Of a stretch of 64,000 nt of DNA, positions 16,199-63,424 are shown in pieces. Position 1 is the stretch's first letter, and the number at the start of each line of letters is the position of its first letter. A program made the position numbers and the translations under genes. The DNA is taken from assembly GCA_963833985.1 (NCBI GenBank), contig CAWIAD010000002.1, positions 3,584,001-3,648,000 on the forward strand, read 5' to 3'. Source of the DNA: an uncultured Planctomycetaceae bacterium (GTDB lineage Bacteria > Planctomycetota > Planctomycetia > Isosphaerales > Isosphaeraceae). Under the pieces are notes generated by a model that was not told the origin of the DNA, searched no databases, and saw only the letters and a program-made list of their open reading frames with translations.

Positions 16199-16230
16199 AC
16201 TGATCACCAGGAAGAATCATCAGCGATTGG

Positions 16231-17295: not shown

Positions 17296-17306
17296 TGTCG
17301 GTCGAT

Positions 17307-18260: not shown

Positions 18261-18309
18261 GGGACACCATCCCAAGAGCTTACCGCTCACTCAAGACCCT
18301 CTGCTCCCC

Positions 18310-21300
18310 TCAGAACAACGTTCCCTGTTTGGAATCCATCTTCTTACCCTTGAGCCGGAACCCGCCATCCTCCTTCTTATCGCCCTCTGGAGCCTGTGGC
18401 ACGTCATTCAGGTAGGTCTCCACTGCCACCCTGCTTCCGAGGAGGACAACGGCATCGTCCCAGCAGTCGTCCCAGGTCCAACCGTGGCGGGGGTCGTCCT
18501 CGGGGAAAGTCTCTGGCTTCCAGACGTGGCAGCCGTCACGCTTCTCGATGAGGGGACCGGGCAGCCCCTTGGAGTGGGCAGCCTGGGGGTTGGTGAGTTC
18601 AGGGATGCCGAGGAGGTTGAAGAATTCGTCGTTGGAGAGTGAGGCGGCGGATTCAGCAGACCACTTGCCCGCCTTGAGTGCCTGGAACGCGGCGGCGGCG
18701 AGTCCGGTAAGGCGTTCCCGGAAGGGGAGCTTGCGGTCCACCCGGTAGAAGCCCTTGGGGTCGGTCGGATCATCACGGACGATCCAGTCGAAGTCATCGG
18801 GATCGAGCCCGTACAGGTCGGCGCAAAGAGCGTCGATCTCAACTCGCAGCCGTAGACGGTCTGCCTCGGTCACAGCCCACCAGTGCTTCCATTCCTTGGA
18901 GGCGAGTTCTGGGTAGACGTGCTTGAGCTTGAGCCATTCGGGGGCAAAGCGGCGGTGGATAAAGGATAGGCATGCCGAGCTGGTTGCGAGGCGATGAATG
19001 ATTTTGGGACTCGTTGAGATCGAAGGCAGTGGACATTCCTCGACGATGTACCAGTTGAGTGAAGCACCACATAGCCGATTCCTCAGTGTCCAGTCGAACA
19101 CCATTGAATCAAGGCAAGCCGTGAGTGTCACATTCTTCTGGACAGATGAGTTAGTCGAGAGGAGAGGTACTTTGTTATTGCAGGGAAGAGCGGGTACACA
19201 ACTTGCGATCATTGTTCGATTGTCGGTATTGCGTGCAATGTCACGGTAGATAACTCTCGTTCCGCTCTGCTGCCCACCGTGACTAAGATAAACGTCCCGA
19301 GCCATAAGATTGAGTGGTTCGATACTCTTATGGTCAGCAGACTGGTTTCGCCAGATGGACTTCGACCCATACCCCTCGACATATCCGACCTTCCAGAAGT
19401 CAAACTGGTGGATGATCCGACCTTGATATAGCGGCAAAGCCACTTCCCCCGCTGGTCCTATCCACTGTCCAAAAGCATCTGGACGGTATCCCTTCGCCTC
19501 CCACTGTTCCCTGGGCGGGAACAGCCGGGAGTCGTTGGTCATGTGGAACTCGGTGGCGAAGGTTATCTCCCAGCCGGGGGCGTTGTCGCCGATGCGGATC
19601 GAGTGGTCGTAGATCTTGCGGAAGATCGCCAGGTCACGGGGGCTGCGAAGCTCGACGAGGCTGAGCGACTTTGGGCTGTTTTTCCGCACGTCCTCGGGCG
19701 TGAACACCATCGATGCCGAGTCATTCCGCAACAGGTCGTCAGGAATCTCATGGGCTTCGGGCGAGTCGCCCACACCCATGCGAAACCGAGCACAGAAGGC
19801 GGTTGTCGTGCCGTCCCGAGTCGCTATAAGAGCGACTTGCTTGTAGGAATGATGGGCAGCGGCGAAGACCCTTTTCTCATTCTGAAACGCATAGAGTAAG
19901 TCGAGCCGACCCCGCTGGAGCAGTTCCTCGCGGAAGTCCCTGGTCCCGAAATCGGAGTAGATCCCCGTAGGGAGGATCACTCCGAGACGACCATTGACCT
20001 TGAGAAGCAGCCAAAACACCTCTGCGAACATCTTGTAGGAGTTTAGGTCCGCACTACCCTGGAGTCGGAATGGGTGCTTCGGGTCGGCGAAACCCTGACG
20101 CTCCTGCCGCCGCCTTGCCCAGACCGCAGACAGGGCTGGTCCTTCTTTGCCCTTGGCGAGAGCCAGGTCGAAGGGTTCTGTGACATTCCTCACCCAGTTT
20201 CCCATTGCCTTGAACCGGGCAATGTATTCGTCCCATTGGTCACTCAAGCCAGGCACAGCGGCGAACAACCCCATCTGTCGCCGCAGCGCCGCCTGCTTGT
20301 CGTAGGTCCGATAGAGTGGGTCAAAGTCGCTAAAGAACTCCTGGGAACTGGGCTTCATCACATCCCACGGGGGATTACCGGCGAGAGCATCGAACCCGCT
20401 GCGATCTGGGGTGAACACGTCGGGGAACTCCAGTTCCCAGTGGAAGAATTTCAGGTCGGAGGCAAGCTGACGAATAATCGAGGAACGAGCATCGGACGGT
20501 TCGGCATGCAAGTTCTCTGGCGTAGGGACGTGCCGCAGTGACTCCTCGTCCGTTTGCCAGAACCACACGGCGCACCATTCATTCATCGCCTCTTTAAGTG
20601 CCTGGCGTGGTTCACTAGCCTCAATCTCCCGATACCGGGTTTCCTGGACCCCGGCGTCGTAGATCGGTTGATCGTGCAATTTCTGATACTCGTCCCGGAG
20701 CCGTGCGATCACATCGAGCGGGCGATGATCAGGCTTCTCCACCAAGGATTGATAGCCCTGGAACCTCGTCTCGATCAGCTTCCGCATCTCAATCTTGATT
20801 CGCCCGTCACCCGAGCGGCGGTTCCCGACCTTCTCACCTTTGAGGAAAGTCTCGATCCGCCCTGTACGCTCACCGTTCTTGCCATCGCCGCCTTCTCGCT
20901 CCCATGCTTTGAGCGGGTAGTCCTCCACCCGATCCAGCCAGCAACCAACCAGCGAGTTGCCGACCTTGATCTTGTGATCCAGGAAAGAGAATGGGAGACC
21001 AGGGTCCAGCGTGGCGATCCAGAGTGAGACTCGCGCCAGTTCCACGGCGAGCGGATTGATGTCTACCCCGTAGATGCACCGTTCTACGACGTACCGCCTC
21101 AGTCGAGCCTTTACCCATGCCTCGAAGTTGTCTCCGTAGTACGGATCGTTCGCTGGGAACTTCACGACCTCCTCACCGATCCGCCCCGTTCGTGGCATCC
21201 CGAGGGGCAGCGTGAGCGTATTGGCAATTTCCGGGTTATCCAGAAGGCGGTGGTAACACAGAGACCGATATAGGGCATCCGTTTGGTAGTCCAACGCCGC

Positions 21301-23322
21301 CACTAGGAATGAGGCACTCCCGCAAGCTGGATCGCAAAGTTTCAGGGCGAGGATGACCTCTGGTTCCTTCGGGACGGACGAGCCATTCTCTGCCTTGTCA
21401 TAGCAGAGAGGCTCCAAGGTTCGGTGGACGGTAGGCACCGCCAGTTCTGGTCTGGTGTAGAACGTACCCGAGCCTTTACGGGTATTGCCCGCCCTCACCA
21501 GATAGAACTCACCCAGGACTGTTACCCGCTTGATGAGCTTCGTCGCCTCATTATCGAGGCGGGCTTGATACTCACTGTCCGTCTCCCTGGCTCTTTGCCT
21601 GCCCACCATTCCGGCGAGGACAGCCGCGTCCCTTGCCCAGCGCCTTGCAGCTTCCTCTGCCGCGAGGTACTCGCCTGTGCGTGATGCCTCCACTTCGACT
21701 GAATCGCCCTCCACAGAGGGTTCTTCTTCGCCGATCTCCTCTGGTTCCTCGGGCTGTTCTTCCTCCTCGGGTGACTCTTCCTCCTCATCCTTGGCACTGG
21801 CAGTAACCTGTTCTTTGCGGAGCGTGGTGAGGAGGTTCTTGAGCCCAGTGCGGTCGTGGGTCAGCATGTCCTCCAACCGACGCAGAGGCAGGACCGGCTG
21901 CCGACCAATATTCAGGAACACCATCGGACCAAGGGAATCGTCCGTTCGCTTGAGCCGGTAGTCCAGCAGACCTTCATAGATCAGCCCGATGACCTGGGTG
22001 CGCAAGTCTGAGAAATCGACCGGTCCTTCTACGTAGGTCTTGGTCCGTCCCCGGATCACCGGCAACTTTGCTCGCAGCAACTTGCGGAGCACGGCATAGA
22101 TCGTCGAATCGCTTACAGGGACCAGAGTCTCAAGGATGTGCAGTGCCCTGGCGACAGGATCGGAGCCATTGGATGCACCTGGGCGAAACAGCAGACCGCC
22201 ACGTTCCGGGAACATCAAGTCGGGGTGGAGCGAACCGTCGTGGATCAACCGGAAGAGAGCCATCAAGCGAGACCAAGCAGTGGTCTGGTTGAAGAGGCTG
22301 TGAACACCGCCCTCGAAGCGGACAGCTTCCTCCAACTGCTCATACAGAGTGCGTACCCCATAGGAATGGTCGTAGATCGGTCCATTGAACCGCAATTCTG
22401 GGCGGGACTCCGCGAATAGGCAGACGACCAGCCGCATGATCAGCCGCACCGTCGCTTGGTAGAGAGCCTCATTCGCCTGGGTATCAGTCAGGGGATCGTC
22501 TGCACCGTGATGTACCAGGCTTGCAAACAGTCCTGAGTCCGTTCGGCTCTGCTTGGACACGTCTTCCAGGATGAATTCGATGGCTTCACGGACATTTTCT
22601 TGGAGAAAGTCAGACAGCCGTGCCTGGCGGTTGCGTGACTCTTCAACCGCATCCAGCAGCCCCGAGACACCCGCCTTGATCGGCTTGAGGGACTCGGCAG
22701 ACAGTAGTTGCCGCAGCCCTGCGAGTTCTTCAGAACCTTCGCCGTCGTCAAACCAGCGACCGGACTCCCATTCGCACCAAGACTCAAAGTCCAGCCCTGC
22801 ATACATCAGCCGGAACTGGTATCCATTGGTCAGTAATCCCAGGCGATGCCCCGTGCCCCGCAAAAGCTCCAGGAAGCGTGCATACGCTGTTCGTCCCCGT
22901 CCTCGCCCCACCTGAGCCGAGGTATCCGCCATGACCAGCAGGGCGGGCACAGTGGCGTTGGCATCGCCATAGACGACGCGGTGAGGGCGGATCGTCTCGG
23001 AACGGCTGCCGATGCGAACAACGGTTGTGAGCTTCTCTGGTATGGCGTTCTGCCGAACGACCCGCCCCCACTTGTGACCGAGGTATCCATCGAGCAGGGC
23101 ATCGACCCAGGCGAGGATCGACGGTTCGTCCAGGTTCGGTTCCCCCTCGGCGGCAACCTTGGCGCGGAAACGGGTTTGGGCGTCCCGCAGCTTGTTAGTC
23201 ACCGCCCAGGGTGCCGGTTCGGGTGCGGACGGATACCGCTCCAGCATCACCACTGGCGACAAGAGCAACCCTTGGTGCCGCAGCCGGGACCACCAAGCAT
23301 GTGCCGTATCGACTTGGCTCAT
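18310..23322 (-). CDS. Large N6-adenine DNA methyltransferase (DrmMI/Eco57I type IIG-like)
   Basis: RKGSGTFYT, DPACGSASFL, IYGVDINPLAVELAR, FHWELEFPDVF, GNPPW. Start overlaps the upstream stop (ATGA at 23319-23322). Confidence 0.92.
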   Translation of the reverse strand: MSQVDTAHAWWSRLRHQGLLLSPVVMLERYPSAPEPAPWAVTNKLRDAQTRFRAKVAAEGEPNLDEPSILAWVDALLDGYLGHKWGRVVRQNAIPEKLTTVVRIGSRSETIRPHRVVYGDANATVPALLVMADTSAQVGRGRGRTAYARFLELLRGTGHRLGLLTNGYQFRLMYAGLDFESWCEWESGRWFDDGEGSEELAGLRQLLSAESLKPIKAGVSGLLDAVEESRNRQARLSDFLQENVREAIEFILEDVSKQSRTDSGLFASLVHHGADDPLTDTQANEALYQATVRLIMRLVVCLFAESRPELRFNGPIYDHSYGVRTLYEQLEEAVRFEGGVHSLFNQTTAWSRLMALFRLIHDGSLHPDLMFPERGGLLFRPGASNGSDPVARALHILETLVPVSDSTIYAVLRKLLRAKLPVIRGRTKTYVEGPVDFSDLRTQVIGLIYEGLLDYRLKRTDDSLGPMVFLNIGRQPVLPLRRLEDMLTHDRTGLKNLLTTLRKEQVTASAKDEEEESPEEEEQPEEPEEIGEEEPSVEGDSVEVEASRTGEYLAAEEAARRWARDAAVLAGMVGRQRARETDSEYQARLDNEATKLIKRVTVLGEFYLVRAGNTRKGSGTFYTRPELAVPTVHRTLEPLCYDKAENGSSVPKEPEVILALKLCDPACGSASFLVAALDYQTDALYRSLCYHRLLDNPEIANTLTLPLGMPRTGRIGEEVVKFPANDPYYGDNFEAWVKARLRRYVVERCIYGVDINPLAVELARVSLWIATLDPGLPFSFLDHKIKVGNSLVGCWLDRVEDYPLKAWEREGGDGKNGERTGRIETFLKGEKVGNRRSGDGRIKIEMRKLIETRFQGYQSLVEKPDHRPLDVIARLRDEYQKLHDQPIYDAGVQETRYREIEASEPRQALKEAMNEWCAVWFWQTDEESLRHVPTPENLHAEPSDARSSIIRQLASDLKFFHWELEFPDVFTPDRSGFDALAGNPPWDVMKPSSQEFFSDFDPLYRTYDKQAALRRQMGLFAAVPGLSDQWDEYIARFKAMGNWVRNVTEPFDLALAKGKEGPALSAVWARRRQERQGFADPKHPFRLQGSADLNSYKMFAEVFWLLLKVNGRLGVILPTGIYSDFGTRDFREELLQRGRLDLLYAFQNEKRVFAAAHHSYKQVALIATRDGTTTAFCARFRMGVGDSPEAHEIPDDLLRNDSASMVFTPEDVRKNSPKSLSLVELRSPRDLAIFRKIYDHSIRIGDNAPGWEITFATEFHMTNDSRLFPPREQWEAKGYRPDAFGQWIGPAGEVALPLYQGRIIHQFDFWKVGYVEGYGSKSIWRNQSADHKSIEPLNLMARDVYLSHGGQQSGTRVIYRDIARNTDNRTMIASCVPALPCNNKVPLLSTNSSVQKNVTLTACLDSMVFDWTLRNRLCGASLNWYIVEECPLPSISTSPKIIHRLATSSACLSFIHRRFAPEWLKLKHVYPELASKEWKHWWAVTEADRLRLRVEIDALCADLYGLDPDDFDWIVRDDPTDPKGFYRVDRKLPFRERLTGLAAAAFQALKAGKWSAESAASLSNDEFFNLLGIPELTNPQAAHSKGLPGPLIEKRDGCHVWKPETFPEDDPRHGWTWDDCWDDAVVLLGSRVAVETYLNDVPQAPEGDKKEDGGFRLKGKKMDSKQGTLF

Positions 23323-26300
23323 GGCTGGAGATCCTCTTTGGTCTCCGGGACGAGGTACGTGAGTGCCAGGGGCAGCACCCTCACCTCACGCAATTGGAAC
23401 CGCTTGGGCAAGACAACCTTGAGCCGGTGGTCTTGCTCCCTGGTCAGTAGTTCTCGGGTCCGTTCCACGTCCTGCCGGATCACTTCCATCTGCTCGTCCA
23501 GTTCCTTTTGGCTGACCCGGATTTCCTCCACGACATCGGCAAGGAGGGCATAGCGTTCCATCTCTGCTTCGACCTTGACGATCGCCTTGGCGAGCCTCGC
23601 CCGTTCGCGGTCGCTACTGCGATCCTGCAACTCGTTGAGCCGGTAGCGGTAGCTCTCCTTCGCTGCATCGGTTTCTCGCTTCTTCGTCGTATCCGCTCTG
23701 GCTTGCAGTTCCTTCTTCAACGCCGATTCCTCGGAACGCAGGAAGGCTTCGAGTTGCCTGCGGTGAGTAAGCCACCGACCCCTGAATGCCCTGACCCAAT
23801 CATCGCGGCTGGACGGCGACTTGACCGGATGGAACTCACTTGCCAGGACGCTCTGCTCAAAATCGTGATCCACGGCTTCAAGCTGGTGTCCAACGATGCG
23901 ATAGACCCGGCACACAACTTCGTCGTGGAGCGGCTCCCGCAGTTCGTTGATTGCCGTGATCGTGTAATAGAAGACCAGCAGGGCATCGAACCCAGTGCGA
24001 TGAAGGGCAGCGATTGACCACCGGAAGATCGGGTCATGGGAGGTCGGGTCGTGAAGCTGGCGACACAGGGTTGCCATTGCCTGCCGCATGATCGGATGAC
24101 CGAGACGGAGGAGTACCTGGTGCTTCTGGAGCCGCAGCACCCGCCTCCCGCTGACCTCTTTTTCGACGAGAGCCGTGTCGAAAACCAGTTCCATGCGGTC
24201 AGTTCGTGGTCCCACGGTGAGGGTTTGGCGAGCCAGTCCTTCCCAGCGTGGCGGCGGCTTGAGCCGGTAGAAGCCTGGTCGCCCCGTGATCTCATCCAGT
24301 GCCCCTTGCCCCTCCACCGCGATGGCTGCTCTGAGGATGTCCGCAAGGGATTGGGACGAGATCCCCAGGCGGTTGTCGGTGTTCTCCAGCAGTTCCCTGG
24401 CACGCCGGGTCAGGTCAGCAAGGTCGTGAACGGTGGTCTGACCCAGGTCATTCTTCTCAGGGCTGCGTGCGGACTCCTGCTCAATGAACAGGTTGATCTG
24501 ATCCACCGAGGTCGGCTTGCCCTGAAAGTGCTGCTGGATTGCGGCGTCGAAGATGCGCTCAACGCTGCCGAGGTCATCTTGAATCGTGCTCGCCTTCCCG
24601 GCAACGTAGGCGAGGAAGTCCATGTCTTCTTCCTGGTCGCAACGGAAGTAATGCACGCTCACATCCCGAACCTGACCGTGCCGGGACACACGCCCGTTGC
24701 GTTGCACGATCTTCGAGGGCGACCAGGGGATGTCGTAGTGGACGATCCACCGACACTCCTCCTGCATGTTGATGCCCTCGGAGGCTGCATCGGTCGCGAG
24801 GAGCAGCCGTACGGCGGCGTTGCGGTCCTCGAACTCGGACTTTACCGCCTCGAACTCATCTACGTTCATTCCGCCGTAGAGGAGCCGCAGGGTGTTCTTG
24901 TCGAAGCCCTCCTGGAGAAACCGCTGCTCCAAGTAGAAGAGGGTCTCCTTGTATTCCGTGAAAACGATGAGCCGCTCGTCGTCCCTCGGCTTGCCGTTGG
25001 CGAACAGGTGATTCTTGACCCAGCAAACCAGGGCTTCAGTCTTCGAGTCCGACTTCTTGGCGAGATGGTTGAGCTTGCCAGGGTCTTCGATCGTGTTTCG
25101 GTCGTAGCCGAGGGCTTCCAGGGCTTGATTGACCCTGCGCTGCAAATCCTCAGTGGTCTGTCCCCGGCTGCGGAAGTAAGCACCCGAGTAGCGAGCGGCG
25201 TCATCTTCCAAGACCGACCGCTCGTCGTCGCTCTTGGTTTGCTCCTCTGCGCGTTCCGCAGACACCCGTGCCATGTCGAAGAGGCTGCCACCGTCCGGTT
25301 CCAGGTCGCCTTCCAGGTGCCTCCACCACGTCCGTGCGAACGCGAATGGGCATGACAGGAGTCGTTTGGTCAGCAGCGAGTAGATGAACTGACCCAGCCA
25401 CCTTTCGGCTGCCGAGGCATTGCCAAGGGCAGCTTGTCCCTTCTTGCGGTAATCCCGCAAGGCGGCGTAGAGAGCGGTCTCCTTTGAGGACAGATTGAGC
25501 TTCAACTCAACTGGGGGAAGCTGATCGGCAAAGGGAGGGCGGATCGACTGCTTGTTGATGTCATCCTTGAGTCGGCGGATGCGGACCTCCGCGAGATGTG
25601 CCTTGTCCTTGGCATCCATCTCGGTGGTCATCTGGAACCGGATGGGGTCGAGCAATTCCAGCACGCCGGTGAAGCAGACCGTCTTGCCGTTATGGGGCGT
25701 GGCTGAGGCGAAGATGCGGTGCTCGAAGAGAAACCGGATCTCACGAAGCATCCGAGTTCGCTGGCTGGCACGGCTGCCGCTTTGTGGTGCGAAGTGATGT
25801 ACTTCGTCTACAATAAGTAAATCCCACGGAGCGTGAGCCGTCGTACGGTTACGGTTGGTCTCTGCATCGGCACCCGCTCCAGATGCCTGAAGGAACTGCT
25901 GGAGGACATCGGGCATCCGCAGGTAGTCCATCGACGTGATGACGCGGGGGAAGGCTTTCCAGGGATTCGTGTCGATTCCCATTTCCCGCCGCAGCTTGAA
26001 CGTCGAGTCCGAGTCGATGACCCGGAAGTCCAGGTTGAACTTCCTCCTCAACTCGTACTGCCATTGCCGCTGGAGCATCGCGGGGCAGACGACCAGGATG
26101 CGCCGTATGCGTCGTCGCAGCAGCAGTTCTTCCAGCACCAGCCCGGCTTGGATCGTTTTTCCCAAGCCCACGCTATCCGCCAGAAGGAGGCTGACGCGGG
26201 GCATCGCCAAGGCTTTGAGCACCGGCTCAAGCTGGTAGGCATGAACCTGGATGGCTGAATTCCAGACACCCAGGAGCGGCTCGTCCTTGATGTCCTCGCC

Positions 26301-26618
26301 CTCACGCAACCGGTTCAGACGTGTCCAGCGATGGGCGTTCACGAACGCCTGCAATGCCTGGGGGCTGTCAGGTCGGTTGGCATCGACTCCTGGAAGAGTT
26401 GTGGTTCCGAGGACGGTGCCGGTTGCCTCGACCTCCCAGAGCAACTGCTCAGCTTCCGGGTATCGCCAGTCATCGAGATACTCGACATCGATGATGTGCA
26501 AGCGACCGCTACCGGTGCGGCTGTCGTAGGGCTCAACGGCACGTACCGTCGCCAGGCGGTTGCGAACACGCACAGCCTGACCTACTTCGGGGATCTTCTG
26601 AGCGGCGCTGCTTGCCAT
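23319..26618 (-). CDS. drmD: DISARM-type SNF2-like helicase DrmD
   Basis: PEVGQAVRVRNR N-terminus, YQLEPV, LADSVGLGKTIQAG, DEVHH, SATPHNG, ATDAASEGIN, QRNGRVSRHGQ. Confidence 0.88.
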   Translation of the reverse strand: MASSAAQKIPEVGQAVRVRNRLATVRAVEPYDSRTGSGRLHIIDVEYLDDWRYPEAEQLLWEVEATGTVLGTTTLPGVDANRPDSPQALQAFVNAHRWTRLNRLREGEDIKDEPLLGVWNSAIQVHAYQLEPVLKALAMPRVSLLLADSVGLGKTIQAGLVLEELLLRRRIRRILVVCPAMLQRQWQYELRRKFNLDFRVIDSDSTFKLRREMGIDTNPWKAFPRVITSMDYLRMPDVLQQFLQASGAGADAETNRNRTTAHAPWDLLIVDEVHHFAPQSGSRASQRTRMLREIRFLFEHRIFASATPHNGKTVCFTGVLELLDPIRFQMTTEMDAKDKAHLAEVRIRRLKDDINKQSIRPPFADQLPPVELKLNLSSKETALYAALRDYRKKGQAALGNASAAERWLGQFIYSLLTKRLLSCPFAFARTWWRHLEGDLEPDGGSLFDMARVSAERAEEQTKSDDERSVLEDDAARYSGAYFRSRGQTTEDLQRRVNQALEALGYDRNTIEDPGKLNHLAKKSDSKTEALVCWVKNHLFANGKPRDDERLIVFTEYKETLFYLEQRFLQEGFDKNTLRLLYGGMNVDEFEAVKSEFEDRNAAVRLLLATDAASEGINMQEECRWIVHYDIPWSPSKIVQRNGRVSRHGQVRDVSVHYFRCDQEEDMDFLAYVAGKASTIQDDLGSVERIFDAAIQQHFQGKPTSVDQINLFIEQESARSPEKNDLGQTTVHDLADLTRRARELLENTDNRLGISSQSLADILRAAIAVEGQGALDEITGRPGFYRLKPPPRWEGLARQTLTVGPRTDRMELVFDTALVEKEVSGRRVLRLQKHQVLLRLGHPIMRQAMATLCRQLHDPTSHDPIFRWSIAALHRTGFDALLVFYYTITAINELREPLHDEVVCRVYRIVGHQLEAVDHDFEQSVLASEFHPVKSPSSRDDWVRAFRGRWLTHRRQLEAFLRSEESALKKELQARADTTKKRETDAAKESYRYRLNELQDRSSDRERARLAKAIVKVEAEMERYALLADVVEEIRVSQKELDEQMEVIRQDVERTRELLTREQDHRLKVVLPKRFQLREVRVLPLALTYLVPETKEDLQP

Positions 26619-35422: not shown

Positions 35423-36037
35423 ATGAGGCGCGTCCGTTTTAACATCGCCAGCCTGCTCGTTGTCGTCCTGCTTGTCGCTATTGGTTTCGCCGCACTGAGG
35501 GAAGCGAACGAGACGTGGGCTGGCTGGCTCTTTTCCCTGACGCTCTGCGTGCTGCTGATCTCGATCCTTTTCGCCATTCATCGCACAGAATCTAGGCGGG
35601 CGTTCTGGATTGGCGTCGCCCTGTTCGGCTGGATCTACCTGGGGCTCTCCCTGATCCCGTCGATCGAGTCCAGGTTGTTGACGAGGAAGGCGCTCACTTA
35701 CCTTGATTCCATGTTGCCGCGTAGTCCCGTCCTCATCACCGGTCAAGCCTGGGGCGACCTCCAAAACAGCCAGCCAGATCAAACCGTCACAGTCCCATCC
35801 CAGAGTTACCTGATCAGAAATGAGCCGCTCACCGCATACTACAAGTGGCTTCTCAAGGGAGGGAGCGGCACGACCGAGAACTTCGTGAGGATCGGGAATT
35901 CGCTACTGACGTTGTTCATGGCTTGGTTCGGAGGTCAGCTTTCCAGATACCTCTACACGAAGCACCGTAAGTGGAATTCGGGACCGGTCCCAGCACACGT
36001 CCCGACCGAAGGCTCACAGCTATCAAGGAACTGTTAG
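35423..36037 (+). CDS. Membrane protein (MRRxRFxIxxL type), paralog of 37522-38094
   Basis: Four hydrophobic helices; RRAFWIGVALFG, ENFVRIGNSL. Confidence 0.8.
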   Translation: MRRVRFNIASLLVVVLLVAIGFAALREANETWAGWLFSLTLCVLLISILFAIHRTESRRAFWIGVALFGWIYLGLSLIPSIESRLLTRKALTYLDSMLPRSPVLITGQAWGDLQNSQPDQTVTVPSQSYLIRNEPLTAYYKWLLKGGSGTTENFVRIGNSLLTLFMAWFGGQLSRYLYTKHRKWNSGPVPAHVPTEGSQLSRNC

Positions 36038-37521: not shown

Positions 37522-38094
37522 ATGAGGCGATTCCGTTTCCACCTCGGCACCCTGGTGATCCTTGTCCTGGTCCTCGGGGTCGGCTTTGCCGCCCTGCGTG
37601 AGTCGAATGAGACCTGGGACATCATTACCTTCAGCGTCTTGCTGGGTGGTCTACTGACCTCCGTCCTTCTCGCCGTCCATCGAACTGGCTCGAGGAAGGC
37701 ATTCTGGCTGGGGTTTGCTCTCTTCGGATCAGCATACCTGGGGCTGTCTCTGGTCCCCGCCATTGAACCGAGGCTGCTCACGACCAAGGCACTGGCTTTT
37801 CTTGACTCCAAAGTGCCGAGGTCTATCCCAACAGGATTTGCTTACGCCGATTTCGACAACGACGGCAAGATGGACCTATACCTCGCCAACACGTTCCAGG
37901 ACATCACAGCGGCTACTGGGTTGAACTCGGCGGGATTATCGCTGACGGGATCAATCGGAACCACCGACAACTTTGTGAGGATTGGTCACTCGCTCATCGT
38001 TCTAATCGTCGCATTCGTCGGCGGGCAGCTTTCTTGCCATCTCCACGCTAAGAATCGAGAACCAATTGCGGGATCGGTCAATCCACAGCCTTGA
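37522..38094 (+). CDS. Membrane protein with a single FG-GAP-like motif
   Basis: Clear paralog of 35423-36037; contains FAYADFDNDGKMDLYLAN. Confidence 0.8.
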   Translation: MRRFRFHLGTLVILVLVLGVGFAALRESNETWDIITFSVLLGGLLTSVLLAVHRTGSRKAFWLGFALFGSAYLGLSLVPAIEPRLLTTKALAFLDSKVPRSIPTGFAYADFDNDGKMDLYLANTFQDITAATGLNSAGLSLTGSIGTTDNFVRIGHSLIVLIVAFVGGQLSCHLHAKNREPIAGSVNPQP

Positions 38095-39397: not shown

Positions 39398-40255
39398 ATG
39401 ACCAAGCCACTGAAATTGCTGTTCGACGTGTCGTTCCCCAACATCACCCTGTGGCTCCAGGGCTGCGGCACCGTGGAGATCGGCAACGATGCCAACACGG
39501 ACAACTTCATCCGAGCGATCGACGAAGGCGGGATGGTCTGGAGCGGGAATAAGAGCTACAAAAGCCTGAACGATGCTCTTCAGCACTTGGAGAAGGGGCT
39601 CGGACAGATCCTCTTAGACTTGGGACTCGGTGTCCAGCCTGCTGCCAAGAGCAGACAGTCCGCAAGGCGATCCACATCGAAGCAGAATCAAGTCAAGAGG
39701 CAGAAGACTCCATCTGAACCCGCTCTCCCCAAGCAAGTGCAAAAGTTGGAGGAGATCATCGAGGCAATCCAGGGCAAAGAGATTGTTCAGGTCACCCGGC
39801 TGACTGTCGTCAAGAAGCTGTGCGAGAACCCCGATGCTGCAAGTGCATTCGCCTTGTTCCTTGCCAAACAGGCTCAGGGGCGGCTACGCGAGAAACCAGG
39901 CAAAGAGCGATACGTTGAATTGGCAGATCGGGCGATCAAAGAGATTAAATCCTTTCTGGGCGACCCAACTGATGTCCGCAGACAGCGACTCCGATCTCTG
40001 CTCCTGGAGATCCAGGCTGAGCAGAACGAGTGCGTGTCCATCAAGTGGAGTGCAGTGCGGAACATCAAGAGTTGGGACTTGCTGATTGTGGAGAACGCCC
40101 TGCGGTCTATCCTGAATCGCGATGAAGCTCCGCTTTGGTTGTATCAAGCCGCAAGGGATTATGTCGGTAGCACAATGGAGTTCGAGAAGAAATCGATCCC
40201 TCAACTTGAGGAGATCGCTGGTTTCTGGCGAGAGTATTTCTCAGTCAACGAGTAG
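39398..40255 (+). CDS. Hypothetical two-domain protein
   Basis: N-terminal FPNITLWLQGCGTVEIG...RAIDEGGMVW, basic linker, helical C-terminal domain. Confidence 0.72.
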   Translation: MTKPLKLLFDVSFPNITLWLQGCGTVEIGNDANTDNFIRAIDEGGMVWSGNKSYKSLNDALQHLEKGLGQILLDLGLGVQPAAKSRQSARRSTSKQNQVKRQKTPSEPALPKQVQKLEEIIEAIQGKEIVQVTRLTVVKKLCENPDAASAFALFLAKQAQGRLREKPGKERYVELADRAIKEIKSFLGDPTDVRRQRLRSLLLEIQAEQNECVSIKWSAVRNIKSWDLLIVENALRSILNRDEAPLWLYQAARDYVGSTMEFEKKSIPQLEEIAGFWREYFSVNE

Positions 40256-40289
40256 GACGGGATCGAATCGATCTCCAAGAGGTAGAGCT

Positions 40290-40541
40290 ATGATCAGCTT
40301 CACAGACTGGTTCCCACTCGCAACTGTCGGCTTGACCTTCACGATCCTGGGCAGCCTCAAGCTCTGGGGATTGAAGCGGGGAATTGTCGGTGGCGCTAAC
40401 AAACCCTTCGCTCAACGGCTGTGCGGCACCTGACCCACCTGGGAGAGCCGTAGTTTGCGGCTGGGATTTCCACTTCTCTTCCTTGGCATCGGGCTGATCT
40501 ACCTCGGCTGGCTCGGATGGGTGCTGCTTTCGGCGAGGTAA
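40290..40541 (+). CDS. Candidate selenoprotein: 83-aa two-TM membrane protein with CxxU (C45-G-T-U48)
   Basis: AAGAGGT RBS and ATG 40290; in-frame TGA 40431-40433 after LCGT. The frame continues PTWESRSLRLGFPLLFLGIGLIYLGWLGWVLLSAR to TAA 40539-40541. SECIS-like hairpin starts 12 nt after the TGA. Confidence 0.7.
40446..40462 (+). promoter_or_regulatory. Candidate bacterial SECIS stem-loop
   Basis: AGCCGTA-GTT-TGCGGCT: 7-bp stem, loop starts with GU, 19 nt after the UGA. Confidence 0.65.
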
Positions 40542-43602: not shown

Positions 43603-43835
43603 CTGATCTGCTTGCCCTCCATTGCACTGGCAACGACCGGCTCGACCTTCGCGATCCTCGGCTGAATTACGTTGGGGGGATTGCGAAGAGGCATCGTAAG
43701 AGGTGCTGGTGAACCCTTCGCTCAACGGCTGTGTGGCATGTGACCCACCTGGAAGAGCCGCAGTCTGCGGCTGGGATTTCCAATTCTTGTACTGTGGCAC
43801 TGGGATGATCACCCCTGGCTGGCTATTTCGTGTAA
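43603..43835 (+). pseudogene. Decayed second copy of the CxxU membrane gene
   Basis: GLRRGIVRGAGEPFAQRLCGM-TGA(43741)-PTWKSRSLRLGFP. ATG lost, extra TGA at 43663, +1 frameshift near 43795. Hairpin AGCCGCA-GTC-TGCGGCT at 43756-43772. Confidence 0.8.
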
Positions 43836-44249: not shown

Positions 44250-44362
44250 TAGCAACATGCCGATCGGCAGTTCACCTTCGCACAGGGTGGACGCCACATG
44301 GTCGGCAGGCTCGATGCCATGTGCATCCGATGGACTCCAGGACGGAGCCCATTGAAGCACAA

Positions 44363-44394
44363 TGACCCGGTGGGAAGAGCCTCCCACCGGGTCA
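44363..44394. repeat. Perfect 13-bp inverted repeat upstream of the primase gene
   Basis: TGACCCGGTGGGA-agagcc-TCCCACCGGGTCA. Confidence 0.85.
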
Positions 44395-44433
44395 CATGTG
44401 CGACTCTCATCTTTGCCACACGAGAGTATCAAT

Positions 44434-47328
44434 ATGAATGTAGCATGGAAGCAGAAAGATTTCTACAAAAATATCGACCAATCTTTAATTACCGAACCCG
44501 ACTTCGACTCCATCAACCAGGCGTTGCACGTCATCTGCGACCCCGGTGACGTGCATGAAGTTAGGGTGGCGGACACCAACCTGGGCGTGTTGGCGGGTTG
44601 GTTCGATGACCTGGAGGCGATGACCCTAGCCATCCTAGACCTTACCAGGGGCGAGGGAAAGTACGAGGGCAAGTACGGGTTCAAGGAGTTGAGGAGGTTG
44701 CCTGAGTCGGTGTACCTTTCTCTCAATCCAGTCACCGACGATCTCCTCGCCTTGGTGGGAAACCGGATCAAGGTATGCGACACAACGACCAAGGATCACG
44801 ATATCGTCGCCATCAAACGGCTGTTCCTCGATGGCGATCCGTGGAGACGCAAAGGCGTCTCTTCGACTGACGCGGGTCATTCACTGGCGATCACCAAGAT
44901 GATCGAGGTGAGGGATTACCTGATAGGGATGGGGTTCGCTCAACCGTGCCTTGCGGACAGCGGAAACGGTGCCCACGTGATCCATGCCACGCTGTTGGAC
45001 AACACACCCGATGATCGGGCACTTGTGGAGGCATACGTCAAGGCGGTCTCCCTCCGGTTCGGTGTGTCCTGCAAGCACGGAGAGAAGAACAAGCCGCCTA
45101 CCCCTGGCTACGACGACACGATCATCAACATCGACGCCGCCGTCTTCAACCCGTCCCGGATCGTGACCGCCTACGGCACAATGAAACGCAAGGGCACTGA
45201 CATCCCGAAGCGACCGCACAGGCTCTCCCGCATTCTGGAGTCGCCGGGTCGGCTGGAAATTGTGGAACGAGGTGTGATCGAGAAGGTCATCGCCGACCTT
45301 ACTCCCAAGTACACGATCACAGTGAAGATGGAGGCGACTGAGCAGAGTCCAGGTGGTGAAGCTGCCTTGGAGGATGAACAGTTCGGGTTCGGCTCAGTCG
45401 ATTCCGATGAGTTGTGGGCGCAACCGACAGACGAACCACTCAAGCCCATCGCTGGGTTTGACCTGGCAGCCCAACTGGAGGAGATGGGACTTCTGGCGGG
45501 GCAACCGCAGATCGCTGGAGTCTTCACGCACTACCCGGTCCAGGAATGCCCATTCAACCCGGAACACAAGAAGGTCAGGCTGTCTCAGCACCGGAGCGGC
45601 ACCCTCACCTACCTCTGCCCGCATCACTCTTGCCAGGGCAAGAAAGAAGGCTGCGATCGAAAGACCGCCCGTGATTACTTCGCCCATTACGGTGTGACGA
45701 TACCCGTTGAGACTAAGACCGAGAAGCCGAAGCAGGAGAAGACCAGCCGCGTGTCCTTGTTGGTTCAACTCGCCCGGCAGCACTGCACGATCACCAAGGA
45801 TTCCGCCACCCATGTCGTGAACGCCACGTTCATGGACCTGAAACAGCGGATCACTTGCCCCGTGGATTCACAATCCTTCCGCCACTGGCTCGTACGGACG
45901 TTCAGGGAGCAAACGGGCAAGATCATCAAGAGTTCTGAAGTATCAGACGCCGTGTTGAACCTGATGGCGTGCTACAGTGCCTACGTCACCACCTACCGGC
46001 GAATCACACGCCTCGATGATGTTATCTACATCGATACGCTCAACGAGGGAAAGGTCGTCAAGATCACGTGCGATGGCTGGCAGATTCTAGAAACCTGCCC
46101 TGACGGCTTGGTCTTCGAGACCAGGAAGGATATGGGCAAGTTGGCACTGCCCAGGCGGGGCGGGAGCCTCGATGACCTGTGGGAGTTCATCAACGTCAGG
46201 CAAGAGGATCGGGAGACCTACCTGTGTTTCCTTCTCGCCAGCCTGGCGGGACGGAAGCCGTACCCGATCTTGCTGGGCAACGGACAGGAGGGTTCGGCGA
46301 AGACCACGTTCATGAACTTCACCGTCGCCATGATCGACCCGTGCATCCGTGCCAACGGCAAGGACGTGCCGGATACGAGGCGTGATCTGGTGATTCAGGC
46401 ACGCAACCGGCACTTGATCGCCTATGACAACGTGTCCCGCATTTCCGGCGACATGAGCGATGCCTACTGTCGATTGAGCACGGGTGCCGGGTTCACCGTG
46501 CGGGGACTCTATAAAGACGATGAGGAAATGGTCTTCGGCGGTGCAAACCCCGTGCTGTTCAACGGCATCCCGGAGTTGGGCGACAAGAGCGACTTTCTGT
46601 CCCGCTCGATCCGGGTCCGCTTGCCCAAGATCCCGCCAGAAAGACGGAAGACCGAGCGGTATCTGGAGGAAGGGTGGGATGAGCGTGGACCAGGCATCCT
46701 CGGGACACTCTATGACCTGATTGCCAACGGGCTCAAGCACGAGGCGTCAGTAGTGGAAGATGGCAGGGCTCCTCGGATGATCGACAACTACCAGTGGTTT
46801 CGAGCCTGCGAGATGGGGACAGGGTTGCAGTTGGCTGATCGTTTCCGCGAGAACTACGATACGCTGATCCGAGAGGTTGCCTTCGAGACCCTCACGGGCA
46901 AGGCGGTGCTGGCGTTCATGAAGGATCGCAGATTGACGAACTGGGGAGAGATGCCCGAGGACTGGGAAATCTGGCGGGGCACGATGTCCGAATTGTACGA
47001 GGGCATCAAGCCCAAGTGGCTGGAGGTCTGCGATGGCTCCACCAAGCAGAAGAACCTCCTTCCCGGCTCTCCTGCCCGGCTGACAAACGCCATCGACGCC
47101 ATCTCTTCGTCCCTGGTCGCCAACGGCATCGTCTTCACCCGAGGTCGATCGAATGACCAGCGCTGGGCACAGATCGACGCCAGGGCGTATTTCCAAGGCG
47201 AAGTCGAGGAAGAGCCGGTGTACCTCTGGGATTCTCCACAGGATGTCGCCCAAGATCGTTGGGCAGGATTCGCAGAGGTCATGACGGACGAGGTGACGAC
47301 TCCGCTCCACTCAGAGGTGACGACGTGA
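44434..47328 (+). CDS. Primase-helicase (AEP-like primase, Zn finger, SF3-like ATPase)
   Basis: LFLDGDP (DxD), DSGNGAH, IDAAVFNPSRI; CPFNPEH...CPHHSC; GQEGSAKTT (Walker A), IAYDNV (Walker B). ATG 44434 preferred because 44362 sits in a hairpin. Confidence 0.85.
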   Translation: MNVAWKQKDFYKNIDQSLITEPDFDSINQALHVICDPGDVHEVRVADTNLGVLAGWFDDLEAMTLAILDLTRGEGKYEGKYGFKELRRLPESVYLSLNPVTDDLLALVGNRIKVCDTTTKDHDIVAIKRLFLDGDPWRRKGVSSTDAGHSLAITKMIEVRDYLIGMGFAQPCLADSGNGAHVIHATLLDNTPDDRALVEAYVKAVSLRFGVSCKHGEKNKPPTPGYDDTIINIDAAVFNPSRIVTAYGTMKRKGTDIPKRPHRLSRILESPGRLEIVERGVIEKVIADLTPKYTITVKMEATEQSPGGEAALEDEQFGFGSVDSDELWAQPTDEPLKPIAGFDLAAQLEEMGLLAGQPQIAGVFTHYPVQECPFNPEHKKVRLSQHRSGTLTYLCPHHSCQGKKEGCDRKTARDYFAHYGVTIPVETKTEKPKQEKTSRVSLLVQLARQHCTITKDSATHVVNATFMDLKQRITCPVDSQSFRHWLVRTFREQTGKIIKSSEVSDAVLNLMACYSAYVTTYRRITRLDDVIYIDTLNEGKVVKITCDGWQILETCPDGLVFETRKDMGKLALPRRGGSLDDLWEFINVRQEDRETYLCFLLASLAGRKPYPILLGNGQEGSAKTTFMNFTVAMIDPCIRANGKDVPDTRRDLVIQARNRHLIAYDNVSRISGDMSDAYCRLSTGAGFTVRGLYKDDEEMVFGGANPVLFNGIPELGDKSDFLSRSIRVRLPKIPPERRKTERYLEEGWDERGPGILGTLYDLIANGLKHEASVVEDGRAPRMIDNYQWFRACEMGTGLQLADRFRENYDTLIREVAFETLTGKAVLAFMKDRRLTNWGEMPEDWEIWRGTMSELYEGIKPKWLEVCDGSTKQKNLLPGSPARLTNAIDAISSSLVANGIVFTRGRSNDQRWAQIDARAYFQGEVEEEPVYLWDSPQDVAQDRWAGFAEVMTDEVTTPLHSEVTT

Positions 47329-47641
47329 CGACTGGGTGACGACTGTGCCGCCCACAGTCGTCACCCTCTATCCCTCCGTCCTGCAAGAAGTTATGTCAAG
47401 GGTGACGACGGTGACGACTCTAATTACCTTTTTATACTTTCTCTCAAAATGAAGAATGGAGGGATGGAGAGAGGGGGTGGTCCATTCCATCCATCGCAGA
47501 GAGAAAGAGAAAACAGCCCATCGGAGTCGTCACCATCGTCACCAACGACGCAACTCGTTACACCCAATATAGATATATGGTGACGACTCCTCTATTGGGG
47601 ATCGTCACTGTATCGTCACCCCAGGGTAGCGGAGTCGTCAC
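47293..47641. repeat. GTGACGAC iteron cluster, putative replication origin
   Basis: Ten exact GTGACGAC/GTCGTCAC copies plus three ATCGTCAC variants around an AT-rich tract (47421-47457). Confidence 0.8.
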
Positions 47642-49237: not shown

Positions 49238-49912
49238 TCAGGTGGGAGTGGCTTTGCAGACCCGTCTACGTGCGTCTCTGAGTGCGGTCTCGATCTCGGG
49301 GAGGTCGCCAAGTCCCATGATGGTGAAGATCAGCCTGTCGATCTCTGATTCTACTGCCAGGAGAATCGTTGTCCGGGAGGTGTCCTGTCTTCTCGTCTCT
49401 GCGATGGTGTTGGTTGTCGCCCTGGTCTCGGTGGCTGGCTTCCTACCACGAGTCTTGGCGGCAGGAGCCGTCGCACCGGGAGTCTGCTTCTTGGTTGCGG
49501 TGCGGGGTTTCCCTATTAGTCCCAGGCTCTTCCTGACCTCAGAGACGGTAGTGTGGCTGATCCTCCCCTGCATCCCAGCCTTCGCCCACGCCTCGTTGAC
49601 TTCCCCGGAAGTCGCATCGGGATGATCGTTGAGAAACTCTTTGGTGAAGCCCGCTTTGCCGGGAGTAGTTGTCGCCTTCCGTCTCCTCTTGGGGGCAGTC
49701 TTCGGCTTGGCGGCTACTTTGGACTTCGCACCCAGATTGCCCGTCAGCCCCAGTTTTGCTCTGATCTTGTCCACGACGGACTTGCTGACCGTGCCCCTCA
49801 TCCCCTCTGCTGTCCACGCCTCGTTCACGGTTCTGAGGTTGCCTTGTGGATTCTTCGCGAGGAACTCGTTCACGAACTTGGTCTTGTCCCCACGAACGGT
49901 CGCTGTTGCCAT
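49238..49912 (-). CDS. Basic Lys/Thr-rich protein with duplicated HTH-like domain
   Basis: GGGAGA RBS; two copies of KxxFxxEFLxxxPxxxxxxVNEAWxxxGMxGxxSxxxVxxxRxxLGL. Confidence 0.78.
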   Translation of the reverse strand: MATATVRGDKTKFVNEFLAKNPQGNLRTVNEAWTAEGMRGTVSKSVVDKIRAKLGLTGNLGAKSKVAAKPKTAPKRRRKATTTPGKAGFTKEFLNDHPDATSGEVNEAWAKAGMQGRISHTTVSEVRKSLGLIGKPRTATKKQTPGATAPAAKTRGRKPATETRATTNTIAETRRQDTSRTTILLAVESEIDRLIFTIMGLGDLPEIETALRDARRRVCKATPT

Positions 49913-50124
49913 GCTGTAGTCTCCCTGGTTTGTGAGCATCGGTCAGTTCAAGAGTGAACTGTCAGCCTATGATGGTTAGATGGTCAACGAAATCCACGCG
50001 GACTTCAAGAGTCAGTCGGGGCTTCCGTTGGTTGAGGGTCTAGTAGGGAACGTGCTATACCGGTTGCGCCAGATGTAGCGTATTTCTAGACGAGCAGTGA
50101 AAGCAGAAACAGGAGTCGGCAGTA

Positions 50125-60477: not shown

Positions 60478-60834
60478 ATGGGGAAGAATCTGTACGTAGG
60501 CAACCTCACCGGCAACGTCACGAAGTCCGACCTGGAGACGATGTTCTCCAAGTTCGGCACGGTTCAGAGCGCCCATCTCATCACACATCGTGACACGGGG
60601 CGCAGCAGGGGGTTCGGCTTCGTCGAGATGGACACGGACGCCCAGGCTCACGCAGCGATCCAAGGACTACGCGATCACGAGCATGGCGGGCGTCGTCTCA
60701 CGGTGTACGAAGCCAAGCCTGGGGATGATCGTGGTGGCGGCGGCGGCGGCGGCGGTGGAAACGGCGGTGGCTCTGGAGGTAGGAGAGAACGGTCGAGTGG
60801 ACTTGAACGGAAGCCTCTTTCCTCTCGACCCTGA
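60478..60834 (+). CDS. RRM RNA-binding protein with Gly-rich tail (B)
   Basis: LYVGNL, RGFGFVEM; the C-terminus runs into a leader remnant. Confidence 0.9.
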   Translation: MGKNLYVGNLTGNVTKSDLETMFSKFGTVQSAHLITHRDTGRSRGFGFVEMDTDAQAHAAIQGLRDHEHGGRRLTVYEAKPGDDRGGGGGGGGGNGGGSGGRRERSSGLERKPLSSRP

Positions 60835-60851
60835 AAGCGTCCCGATAGGCG

Positions 60852-60920
60852 CTCGTCATCAAACCGGACAAGGGGGACAAGCCCTGTCGGGCAACCCTCA
60901 CGTCTTTGATCCTGTGCTGA
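60852..60920 (+). pseudogene. 69-nt remnant of the 3' end of gene 62324-62806
   Basis: LVIKPDKGDKPCRATLTSLILC* versus LVIKPDKGDKPCRATLTSLVLR* at 62738-62806. Confidence 0.85.
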
Positions 60921-61042
60921 GAGGAATTCCCCACGGCTGAGTCTGGCTAGGGAAGCACCCTGAGTGCTGTCTATCACTCAGGACAGCGACCAGCCGACCC
61001 TCGTGATCGCCATATCCTTGTGAATGAAATTAGCGGCAAGAA

Positions 61043-61284
61043 AAGCACACCTCTTACTGCCAACCCTAGAAGTTCGCCCGCTCAGTCATTACTTTTTCTA
61101 AGAAGCTTCGTTATACTTCAATAGGTTGGTCTGACGACTGAGTGAGCACCTTGGGTTCTCATCGAATCGCTTTCTGCTTTCCCCTCTCGCCTCTCCCACC
61201 TCTTGGGCTCCTTTGCCAGCCCCTTTCTCACCGACCCAGAAAGCATTCAACGGGTCGCAAGGTCTTTACCTCAAGGAGAACCCC
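61043..61284 (+). promoter_or_regulatory. Promoter and conserved 5' leader of RRM gene (copy C)
   Basis: TATACT 61112-61117; GGTTGGTCTGACGAC 61124-61138; CGACCC-N14-GGGTCG 61232-61257. Confidence 0.7.
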
Positions 61285-61629
61285 GTGGGAAAGAAATTGC
61301 ATGTTGGGAATCTGACCTCTTCGGTAGCTTCATCGGATCTGCGAGAGTGGTTCGCCCCGTTCGGCACCGTGCAGAGCGCCCTGGTCATCTCAGACCGAGA
61401 CACGGGACACAGCAAGGGTTTCGGTTTTGTCGAGATGGACACGGACGCCCAGGCTCAAGCAGCCATCCACGGACTCCACGATCAAGATCACGACGGGCGG
61501 CGGCTCATGGTGAGTGAAGCCAAGCCTCGTGTAGCCCGAACCCGAGGCTTCGCTGGTGGTCGCCTTGACGGCAGTGCTCGCACTGGTCGTGGTGATGGTT
61601 ATGGAGCCGGTGGCGCGCAGCCGTATTGA
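61285..61629 (+). CDS. RRM RNA-binding protein (C)
   Basis: AAGGAG RBS, GTG 61285; LHVGNL, KGFGFVEM. Confidence 0.9.
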   Translation: MGKKLHVGNLTSSVASSDLREWFAPFGTVQSALVISDRDTGHSKGFGFVEMDTDAQAQAAIHGLHDQDHDGRRLMVSEAKPRVARTRGFAGGRLDGSARTGRGDGYGAGGAQPY

Positions 61630-61806
61630 TCGTCCTCCATCTCGGTGGGTTCCGAGTGGATCTCTCGTAGGGTCCCTCGATTCGTCCGATTTCGCCGATG
61701 ATTCGGGGCTCTCGGTTGGCTCACCGTCTTCGTGGTCTCTCGCCTGCCGACCATGAGGATCGGAGGTATCTGAACCAATCAATCAAACTGGACTAGAGCA
61801 GGCGGA

Positions 61807-62247
61807 ATGAGTCCTGTGCTATCCCGCCGTCCACTCCTGATCAAGTCTCCTTCTGGGAGCCATCAACATGCAGTTGATTTAACCACCATGCATGGTTCGG
61901 AGCCTCAAGTGAACAGTTACCCTGCCAGCGAACAAAAGATAAGGGATGTTGAGAGAGGTCGAATCTGCAACGCAATCCTTCCGATGCCGCGTGCAAAGAC
62001 GCTTTCCGCTGGCGATTCCATCAACTTCGACCTTGCTTATACACAGGCGGGCAAAGAGCCCTGTTACGTCAAGTGTGGGGATTCGGTCTGTGTCTCGCTC
62101 ACCGAGGTCACTGATCTCGGCGCGACTGATCCCGCAACTGGTCACGCCCTTTATCGGCTTTCGTGGAACCCGCTCGGTCAGAGCGATTCCCCCAGCAATA
62201 TCGTCAAGCGTGTCGTGAAGTCTCGTGGCTCTCTTGGTTCAGCATGA
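61807..62247 (+). CDS. Hypothetical protein (possibly ASCH/PUA-like)
   Basis: ORF with LSAGDSINF...GDSVCVSLTEVTDLG; start uncertain. Confidence 0.5.
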   Translation: MSPVLSRRPLLIKSPSGSHQHAVDLTTMHGSEPQVNSYPASEQKIRDVERGRICNAILPMPRAKTLSAGDSINFDLAYTQAGKEPCYVKCGDSVCVSLTEVTDLGATDPATGHALYRLSWNPLGQSDSPSNIVKRVVKSRGSLGSA

Positions 62248-62323
62248 CTGTCACCGGCGCAGGTTCACTTCTACACAGCAGGGGCACCGACGACAAATAG
62301 ACCTTGAGTCGCAAGGAAGAACC

Positions 62324-62806
62324 ATGCTCCGCAAACAAATCATCAAGCCACACCCGTCAACCCCGAACGCCACCACGGACGAGATCGACATCGCCACCGT
62401 TGCCACGGTGCAGGTGACCTCCGAGGCTCCCGACCATCCCATCGATCATGTCTTTGACGACCATCGGGGACCGGGCGGCACTCGCTGGATCGCCGGGGAG
62501 CCGGGTGAGCAGACCGTAATCCTTGCCTTCGACACGCCGCAAATGATCAACCAGATCCTCCTGGGAGTTGAAGAGTTGGAAGTACCTCGAACCCAGGAAC
62601 TCCAGTTGAGTCTTTCTTGCGATGGAGGAAAGACATACAGGGAATTGCTGCGACAGGAATTCAACTTCAGCCCAGACGGAACGACCTTCGAGCGGGAGAA
62701 GTGGACAGTCTCAGCCCAGGAAGTGACCCATCTACGGCTCGTGATCAAGCCAGACAAGGGGGACAAGCCCTGTCGGGCAACCCTCACGTCCTTGGTCTTG
62801 CGGTGA
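62324..62806 (+). CDS. Galactose-binding-like (discoidin/F5-8 type C) domain protein
   Basis: AAGGA RBS; VTSEAPDHPIDHVFD...TRWIAGEPGEQTVILAFD...RQEFNFSP. Confidence 0.75.
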   Translation: MLRKQIIKPHPSTPNATTDEIDIATVATVQVTSEAPDHPIDHVFDDHRGPGGTRWIAGEPGEQTVILAFDTPQMINQILLGVEELEVPRTQELQLSLSCDGGKTYRELLRQEFNFSPDGTTFEREKWTVSAQEVTHLRLVIKPDKGDKPCRATLTSLVLR

Positions 62807-62910
62807 CACAGCCAGGGTGATGGACGAAGCCCGATCTCAGGAATGGGACAACCAGATTACCTGCCCGGTGCGCTAGCCCGAGTTTTCTATCAATCTTTTC
62901 CATTTCTTGT

Positions 62911-63079
62911 TATCCTTTTGTCGGTTGGTCTGACGACCGAATGGTGCCGCTGGCTCTTCCCGATCCGGTCGCTGCTACTCCCTCGTCTTATCTACCCAAT
63001 AGGCTTCAACGGAAGCCCCTTTCTTCTCGACCCTGAGAGCGTCCCGAGGGTCGTCAGCCTTTCGTTTCGGAGTTCGATC
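62911..63079 (+). promoter_or_regulatory. Promoter and conserved 5' leader of RRM gene (copy D)
   Basis: TATCCT 62911-62916; GGTTGGTCTGACGAC 62923-62937; CGACCC-N14-GGGTCG 63028-63053. Confidence 0.68.
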
Positions 63080-63424
63080 GTGGGTAAGAAGCTATACGTG
63101 GGCAACCTGACCTACAACGTCAACGAGTCCGACCTGGAGGCGTTGTTCACGCCCTTCGGGACGGTCCAGAGCGCCCAGGTCATCGTAGACCGGGATACGA
63201 ACCGCTCGAAGGGGTTTGGGTTCGTGGAGATGGGCTCCGACGCCGAGGCGCAGGCAGCCATTCAGGGTCTCGACGGTCGTGACCACGACGGACGCAACCT
63301 GACGGTCAACGAAGCCAAGCCACGGGAAGAGCGTGGTGGCGGTGGTCGCAGCGGTGGCGGCGGCTACGGTGGTGGTCGTGGCGGCGGTGGTGGCTACGGA
63401 GGCGGTGGCGGTCGGCGTTATTGA
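63080..63424 (+). CDS. RRM RNA-binding protein with GGGY/RGG tail (D, most canonical)
   Basis: GTG 63080; LYVGNL, KGFGFVEM, LTVNEAKPRE, C-terminal GGRRY. Confidence 0.95.
   Translation: MGKKLYVGNLTYNVNESDLEALFTPFGTVQSAQVIVDRDTNRSKGFGFVEMGSDAEAQAAIQGLDGRDHDGRNLTVNEAKPREERGGGGRSGGGGYGGGRGGGGGYGGGGGRRY

Follow-up and report, generated by a model that had tools for sequence, protein, structure and literature searches.

The 47-residue fragment found in databases is very likely an 83-residue membrane protein in which an internal UGA codes for selenocysteine (Sec); judged from the gene, its homologues and the genomes that carry them, codon 48 is almost certainly decoded in this way. The protein very likely represents a real and new family of bacterial selenoproteins with an unusual, minimal membrane architecture, for which a function can be proposed from sequence and structure prediction. 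The gene lies within the 64,000-nt window (the whole stretch of DNA analyzed here), where its main features are:

40290..40541, + strand: 83-codon read-through ORF, predicted selenoprotein (sequence, homologues, coding constraint)
40277..40283, + strand: purine-rich sequence resembling a ribosome-binding site, AAGAGGT, 6 nt 5' of the ATG (sequence)
40299..40376, + strand: helix 1, residues 4-29, predicted transmembrane (AF2)
40422..40442, + strand: C45-G-T-U48-P-T-W motif in a positively charged, predicted cytoplasmic loop (sequence and homologues)
40431..40433, + strand: in-frame TGA, codon 48, inferred selenocysteine codon (homologue alignment)
40446..40462, + strand: bacterial SECIS-type hairpin, 7-bp stem and 3-nt G-U loop (fold and conservation)
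40449..40532, + strand: predicted transmembrane helix 2 (residues 54-81), with purifying selection at the protein level (AF2, pN/pS)

From its ATG at 40290 the frame runs through 47 codons, ending in QRLCGT, to the TGA at 40431-40433, which falls between the two predicted membrane helices, and then through 35 sense codons to a TAA at 40539-40541; the next ATG, at 40585, follows after a gap of 43 nt. This layout, ribosome-binding site included, is as an earlier sequence-only reading described it. That reading also held that standard gene callers would truncate the protein to 47 residues, and 124 of the 215 distinct homologous proteins in the databases do end exactly at residue 47: recognizing the Sec codon would correct a systematic annotation error.

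The homologue set was assembled by a sequence search, giving 110 proteins, and a profile search, giving 116 representatives. The 215 proteins yield 218 aligned segments, and besides the 124 truncated forms these comprise 49 with cysteine at position 48, 16 with another residue (G in five, three of them from one unrelated long protein; S, R and D in three each; P and W in one each) and 29 fragments or frameshifts. Among the 116 representatives, 40 end at residue 47 and 43 have Cys48. DNA was available from six named genome loci, 7 of 401 genomes sampled from the phylum, 12 of 401 from the class, and 56 metagenome loci, and 72 distinct rows were obtained from 89 matches (five more were skipped), with codon 48 reading TGA in 55, TGT or TGC in six, TAG in four, TAA in three and CCA in one, the remaining three being frameshift halves. 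Homologues with cysteine opposite the TGA and conservation on both sides of it, which the sequence-only reading had named as decisive, were thus recovered, the Cys48 of the database proteins being confirmed in DNA for six loci only. On a rough tree built from 73 rows, 10 changes between Sec and Cys are required, at least seven of them forced by well-supported branches; because row P0117 was cut at the wrong cysteine and the bootstraps have not converged, the tree is taken as rough support only.

Named records with the family are from Planctomycetota (Isosphaeraceae, Planctomycetaceae and Planctomycetales), with one from Acidobacteriota, which points to a planctomycete as the probable host. In a sample of 401 Acidobacteriota genomes there was a real match in the center genome only, a single weak match (L158) being dropped as noise, and the viral contigs searched contained no relative. 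Each of the ten family proteins looked up is named “hypothetical protein” and nothing more.

The stem of the putative SECIS element, 40446-40452 paired with 40456-40462, begins 12 nt past the TGA and its GUU loop after 19 nt, the geometry originally proposed for it; it is present in the minimum free energy fold, and the hairpin has an energy of -8.3 kcal/mol. In our own implementation, which is other than bSECISearch, it falls within the bSECIS model of PMC13188914 (Fig 2A there: loop of 3-9 nt, stem of 4-16 bp, G in the first two loop positions, spacing of 16-37 nt, MFE <= -7.5). Taken by itself the single copy does not rise above chance (z = -0.94; 33 of 200 shuffles fold equally well, and 86 of 1000 synonymous recodings have a hairpin of the same stability), so the evidence for the hairpin rests on its conservation. 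A hairpin of -5 kcal/mol or below is kept in 51 of 52 TGA rows (seven 3'-truncated rows and the three frameshift halves being set apart), is absent from all six Cys rows, and occurs at 136 of 600 true TGA stops; applied to the whole segment, the bSECIS model identifies 46 of the 52 TGA rows, none of the six Cys rows, and 96 of the 600 control stops. Over 40 of the 52 TGA rows, 95.7% of stem cells are paired, a level matched by no shuffle (slid partners give 24-44%), and six of the seven pairs have changed on both sides, with five of the 10 two-sided cells coming from L016. At this locus the 7-bp stem, aligned by position, is an entirely different one with unchanged spacing; L015 has a weak hairpin only (-3.1). 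So compact a hairpin, of the E. coli type, makes read-through directly testable.

Coding constraint was estimated from the 38 colinear, intact TGA loci among 42, with Cys, broken and truncated loci set aside. Here pN/pS is 0.40 upstream of the TGA and 0.35 in helix 2, and pS drops to 0.165 in the six hairpin codons vs. 0.618, 0.620 and 0.639 elsewhere, all of these being pairwise values that are not independent and in which near-copies dominate. To judge by these substitution patterns, the stretch after the TGA codes for protein and bears an RNA signal.

The host genome carries selA, selB, selD and tRNA-Sec (selC), the complete set that the sequence-only reading had proposed looking for. Among carriers of the TGA form, selB is over the cut-off in 20 of 20 genome entries (19 distinct genomes, two entries having identical coordinates) and tRNA-Sec is found in 18, the remaining two having selA, although these counts are not independent and near-copies dominate them. 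As background, selA is over the cut-off in 210 of the 401 class genomes and has matches in 69 of 98 genomes of the host's family. Both genomes carrying the Cys form, at 98-99% completeness, are without selA, selB and tRNA-Sec; they are from one genus, and one of their copies, L086, is a 5'-degenerate fragment. Three other genes of the host have in-frame TGA codons in canonical motifs:

G000:C2:4294585-4295517, - strand: SelD selenoprotein gene (in-frame TGA)
G000:C2:4474173, - strand: FdhA selenoprotein gene (in-frame TGA)
G000:C2:4615473, - strand: UxxC peroxiredoxin-like selenoprotein gene (in-frame TGA)

That the family was not recognized from its sequence is in keeping with Pfam and NCBIfam (June 2026), where nothing came near the cut-off for 45 members (for the first five, nothing meaningful). 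Foldseek gave no match to the predicted structure at E <= 0.001, the best Foldseek/VIA-align Z of 7.5 belonging to generic helical pairs only, and in the ESM Atlas the nearest clusters are unnamed and recognition is under the level of known families. None of the 119 selenoprotein families in the 2026 catalogue of PMC13188914 (Table 1) fits by name, domain or motif, in a comparison made with Pfam, TIGR and NF models, entries with only cd or PTHR identifiers or none being compared by name and motif only; nor, in the available part of PMC12013277, is any of its nine new families described like this one. BSepDB, according to the part of PMC13326102 available, was built from previously reported families, and its family Table S2 may bear on novelty. 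Searches of the open literature gave no description of this family. The bacterial selenoproteome would thereby gain a family that is apparently uncatalogued, from a lineage whose selenoproteins have been little studied; few of the bacterial selenoprotein families in catalogues are integral to the membrane, and the present protein is very small.

The new family resembles the SelB- and SECIS-dependent CxxU selenoproteins in Table 1 of PMC13188914 (AhpD-like, SelW-like, GrdA) in its UGA, adjacent G-U-loop hairpin within the coding region, CxxU motif, Cys homologues and host Sec machinery. It differs from the catalogued CxxU selenoproteins in having no Pfam or NCBIfam match and no predicted thioredoxin or AhpD fold, the whole protein being a two-helix membrane hairpin. 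Its Sec forms are at least as common as its Cys forms in these Sec-seeded searches, whereas Cys homologues are usually far more abundant, as stated in the available part of PMC13188914.

Three families of small membrane proteins were considered as possible identities and rejected. The MerT-like “putative mercuric transport protein” selenoprotein (PF02411, C/SxxU) is likewise small and integral to the membrane, with a Cys/Sec motif; MerT has three helices rather than two and an intramembrane Cys pair that the selenoprotein family lacks, hhalign gives a probability of 1.9%, and there is no PF02411 match. YgaP-like/DUF2892 proteins (PF11127) share two membrane helices and a G-x-C-P-like motif, placed after helix 2 there and between the helices here, and hhalign gives 0.6% over 12 columns (with a five-member comparison profile). 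DUF2752 (PF10825), also a small planctomycete membrane protein, has the motif CP-x-CG and another helix order (hhalign 0.2%). The eukaryotic SELENOK and SELENOS are small, membrane-anchored selenoproteins whose Sec faces the cytosol; they are single-pass, with Sec near the C-terminus and a SECIS element in the 3'-UTR, and the likeness is one of analogy only.

The AF2 model (pLDDT 93.6) has helices at residues 4-29, 40-45 and 54-81. In 39 natural homologues the loop between the membrane helices averages 6.05 K+R vs. 0.97 D+E, and basic loops face the cytoplasm (the positive-inside rule), so this one is placed on the cytoplasmic side; the predicted topology is a helical hairpin whose two termini lie outside and whose basic loop lies inside. 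Lys24, in helix 1, is present in 202 of 209 aligned segments, and conservation is strong both for it and for the GG loop. Of the 124 truncated forms, 121 have Cys45, vs. 24 of the 49 Cys forms; of the Cys forms without it, 13 have a shifted partner Cys and 12 are without a nearby partner, and in several Cys forms there is a third Cys or a shifted one. This pattern suggests that position 48 is the key site, acting as nucleophile, with 45 as a resolving residue that is nearly obligatory when 48 is Sec. The naturally occurring Sec, CxxC, shifted-Cys and single-Cys variants could serve as a model for why Sec is kept over Cys.

A selenol/thiol redox module at the cytoplasmic membrane surface is the function that these sequence features somewhat favor. 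The host's SelA, SelB, SelC and SelD would insert Sec at the in-frame UGA by way of the conserved downstream hairpin, giving an 83-residue inner-membrane selenoprotein that would act as a redox switch or catalyst. At the membrane surface, Sec48 would attack peroxides, disulfides or electrophiles, perhaps with its selenolate stabilized by the invariant Lys24; Cys45 would then resolve it to a selenenylsulfide, to be recycled by cytoplasmic reductants of the thioredoxin type. The gene would move as a stand-alone accessory unit, here on a low-GC island, with copies being born and decaying. We put forward more tentatively the full picture of a minimal, stand-alone, mobile membrane selenoenzyme, in which two helices hold a C-x-x-U loop on a scaffold unlike those of thioredoxin, AhpD or MerT, with multiple copies on variable planctomycete islands, repeated switches between Sec and Cys, and the Cys form in hosts without Sec machinery. 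If true, such a stand-alone membrane selenoenzyme would constitute a new class of redox catalyst in the membrane, one so far concealed in databases as more than 100 fragments of 47 residues.

Another possibility is that the selenoprotein is a sink, a sensor or a minimal MerT/MerF-like shuttle for a soft metal or metalloid (Hg, Cu, Ag, As), with U48 and C45 as the ligands on the cytoplasmic side. A Cys pair in a cytoplasmic inter-helix loop recalls MerT, fetched members of which have such a loop, and Table 1 of PMC13188914 includes MerT-like C/SxxU and metal-binding selenoproteins; the third or shifted Cys of several Cys forms would also fit metal binding. Such a role nevertheless seems unlikely: besides the low probability of the MerT profile comparison and the lack of an intramembrane Cys pair, 12 of the 49 Cys forms have only one Cys locally, and no mer, ars or cop genes recur among 131 neighbors at 23 loci, where one P-type ATPase was found, near L098.

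The selenoprotein might instead have no catalytic turnover of its own and serve another redox complex as a small accessory or membrane-anchor subunit, or act as a stress-induced regulator. Individual gene neighborhoods point in this direction: one TGA copy (L064:30-2164) lies between the large subunit of a NiFe hydrogenase and its HycI-type maturation protease, the gene at L110 directly after a thioredoxin, and that at L008 before a molybdopterin oxidoreductase module, and the strong conservation of K24 and the GG loop is also consistent with a subunit role. Each of these arrangements was found only once, however, the excess of thioredoxin-fold genes near the loci is weak (4 of 23 loci, two sharing one arrangement, vs. 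about 0.7 expected from one family's density in the host genome), and no longer or fused form appeared among 8000 candidates, itself a weak test; an accessory role is accordingly considered improbable. The thioredoxin-fold neighbors and the hydrogenase-operon copy are functional hints to be treated as leads only; no neighbor is conserved across lineages (131 of 161 picked ORFs scanned, at 23 loci), so genomic context gives no support for a redox role.

At 55-61% throughout, vs. 65% for the genome, the GC content of the window places it inside a large island. Genes of the window whose families recur near the selenoprotein gene at other loci are:

39398..40255, + strand: unknown 285-aa helical protein, directly upstream of the selenoprotein gene (no Pfam or PADLOC match)
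35423-36037 and 37522-38094, + strand: pair of unknown, paralogous membrane proteins, with an FG-GAP-like motif in one of them
49238-49939, - strand: Lys/Ala/Thr-rich protein with an internal repeat and histone-like composition

The 285-aa family precedes the selenoprotein gene at 19 of 69 loci, in the closest clade only, many loci being too short to tell. The membrane protein family recurs upstream of it at eight loci, and the Lys/Ala/Thr-rich family near it, also at eight. PADLOC found nothing in two Cys homologues and two flanking genes, and there is no integron-like or other cassette repeat in the 35-60 kb part of the window.

The host genome has three copies of the gene: the ORF at 40290-40541 and two others:

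43624..43794, + strand: pseudogene copy lacking a start, with TGA (43741) and hairpin kept, a further TGA at 43663 and a 3' end that is degenerate (sequence)
G000:C2:4749978-4750226, - strand: intact TGA paralogue, outside the window (genome search)

The copy in the window had been cited in favor of selenocysteine on the grounds that it keeps both TGA and hairpin, with two of three nearby changes synonymous. These observations stand; the copy itself is a pseudogene, in which the homologous position has no start codon, helix 1 contains a further in-frame TGA, and homology is gone past residue 65, and being broken it lends the selenocysteine reading weak support. Broken copies of the family are numerous, with TAG or TAA codons, frameshifts and deletions; the gene is therefore dispensable. 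At L054, L055, L060 and L065, two different deletion derivatives have cut off the 3' half exactly at codon 48, leaving a TAG and an intact 47-codon frame.

These derivatives, and the TAG or TAA at codon 48 in some copies, are what might be expected if the TGA were a genuine stop, with either a 47-residue, single-helix peptide as the product or the copies as pseudogenes of a Cys gene; TGA is also the family's commonest terminal stop (32 of 41). Against this, helix 2 is open and under purifying selection past the TGA, the codon is kept in divergent lineages with the repeated Sec/Cys changes of the rough tree, and hairpin and selB both track the TGA form, all of which make a true stop very improbable. 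An alternative genetic code reading TGA as Trp or Gly, for which there are Trp48 in one degenerate homologue and Gly48 in two proteins and the spurious long match, can be dismissed, since 3881 long open frames in the host genome end at TGA, its tRNA-Sec has a UCA anticodon, and Cys is far commoner at position 48 than any other residue in full-length homologues.

Other features of the window are:

9089-26618, - strand: defense cluster with a DrmD-like SNF2 helicase, a type IIG/DrmMI-like methyltransferase, a DruE-like large helicase and an Mrr-type nuclease
44362-47328, + strand: 988-aa ORF (no Pfam or PADLOC match)
60478-63424, + strand: three RRM-domain genes in close succession

The DISARM/Druantia-like cluster lies about 14 kb upstream of the selenoprotein gene, and its mix of genes is not that of a textbook DISARM or Druantia system. 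After the 988-aa ORF, at 47382-47562, comes an imperfect inverted repeat of 64 nt.
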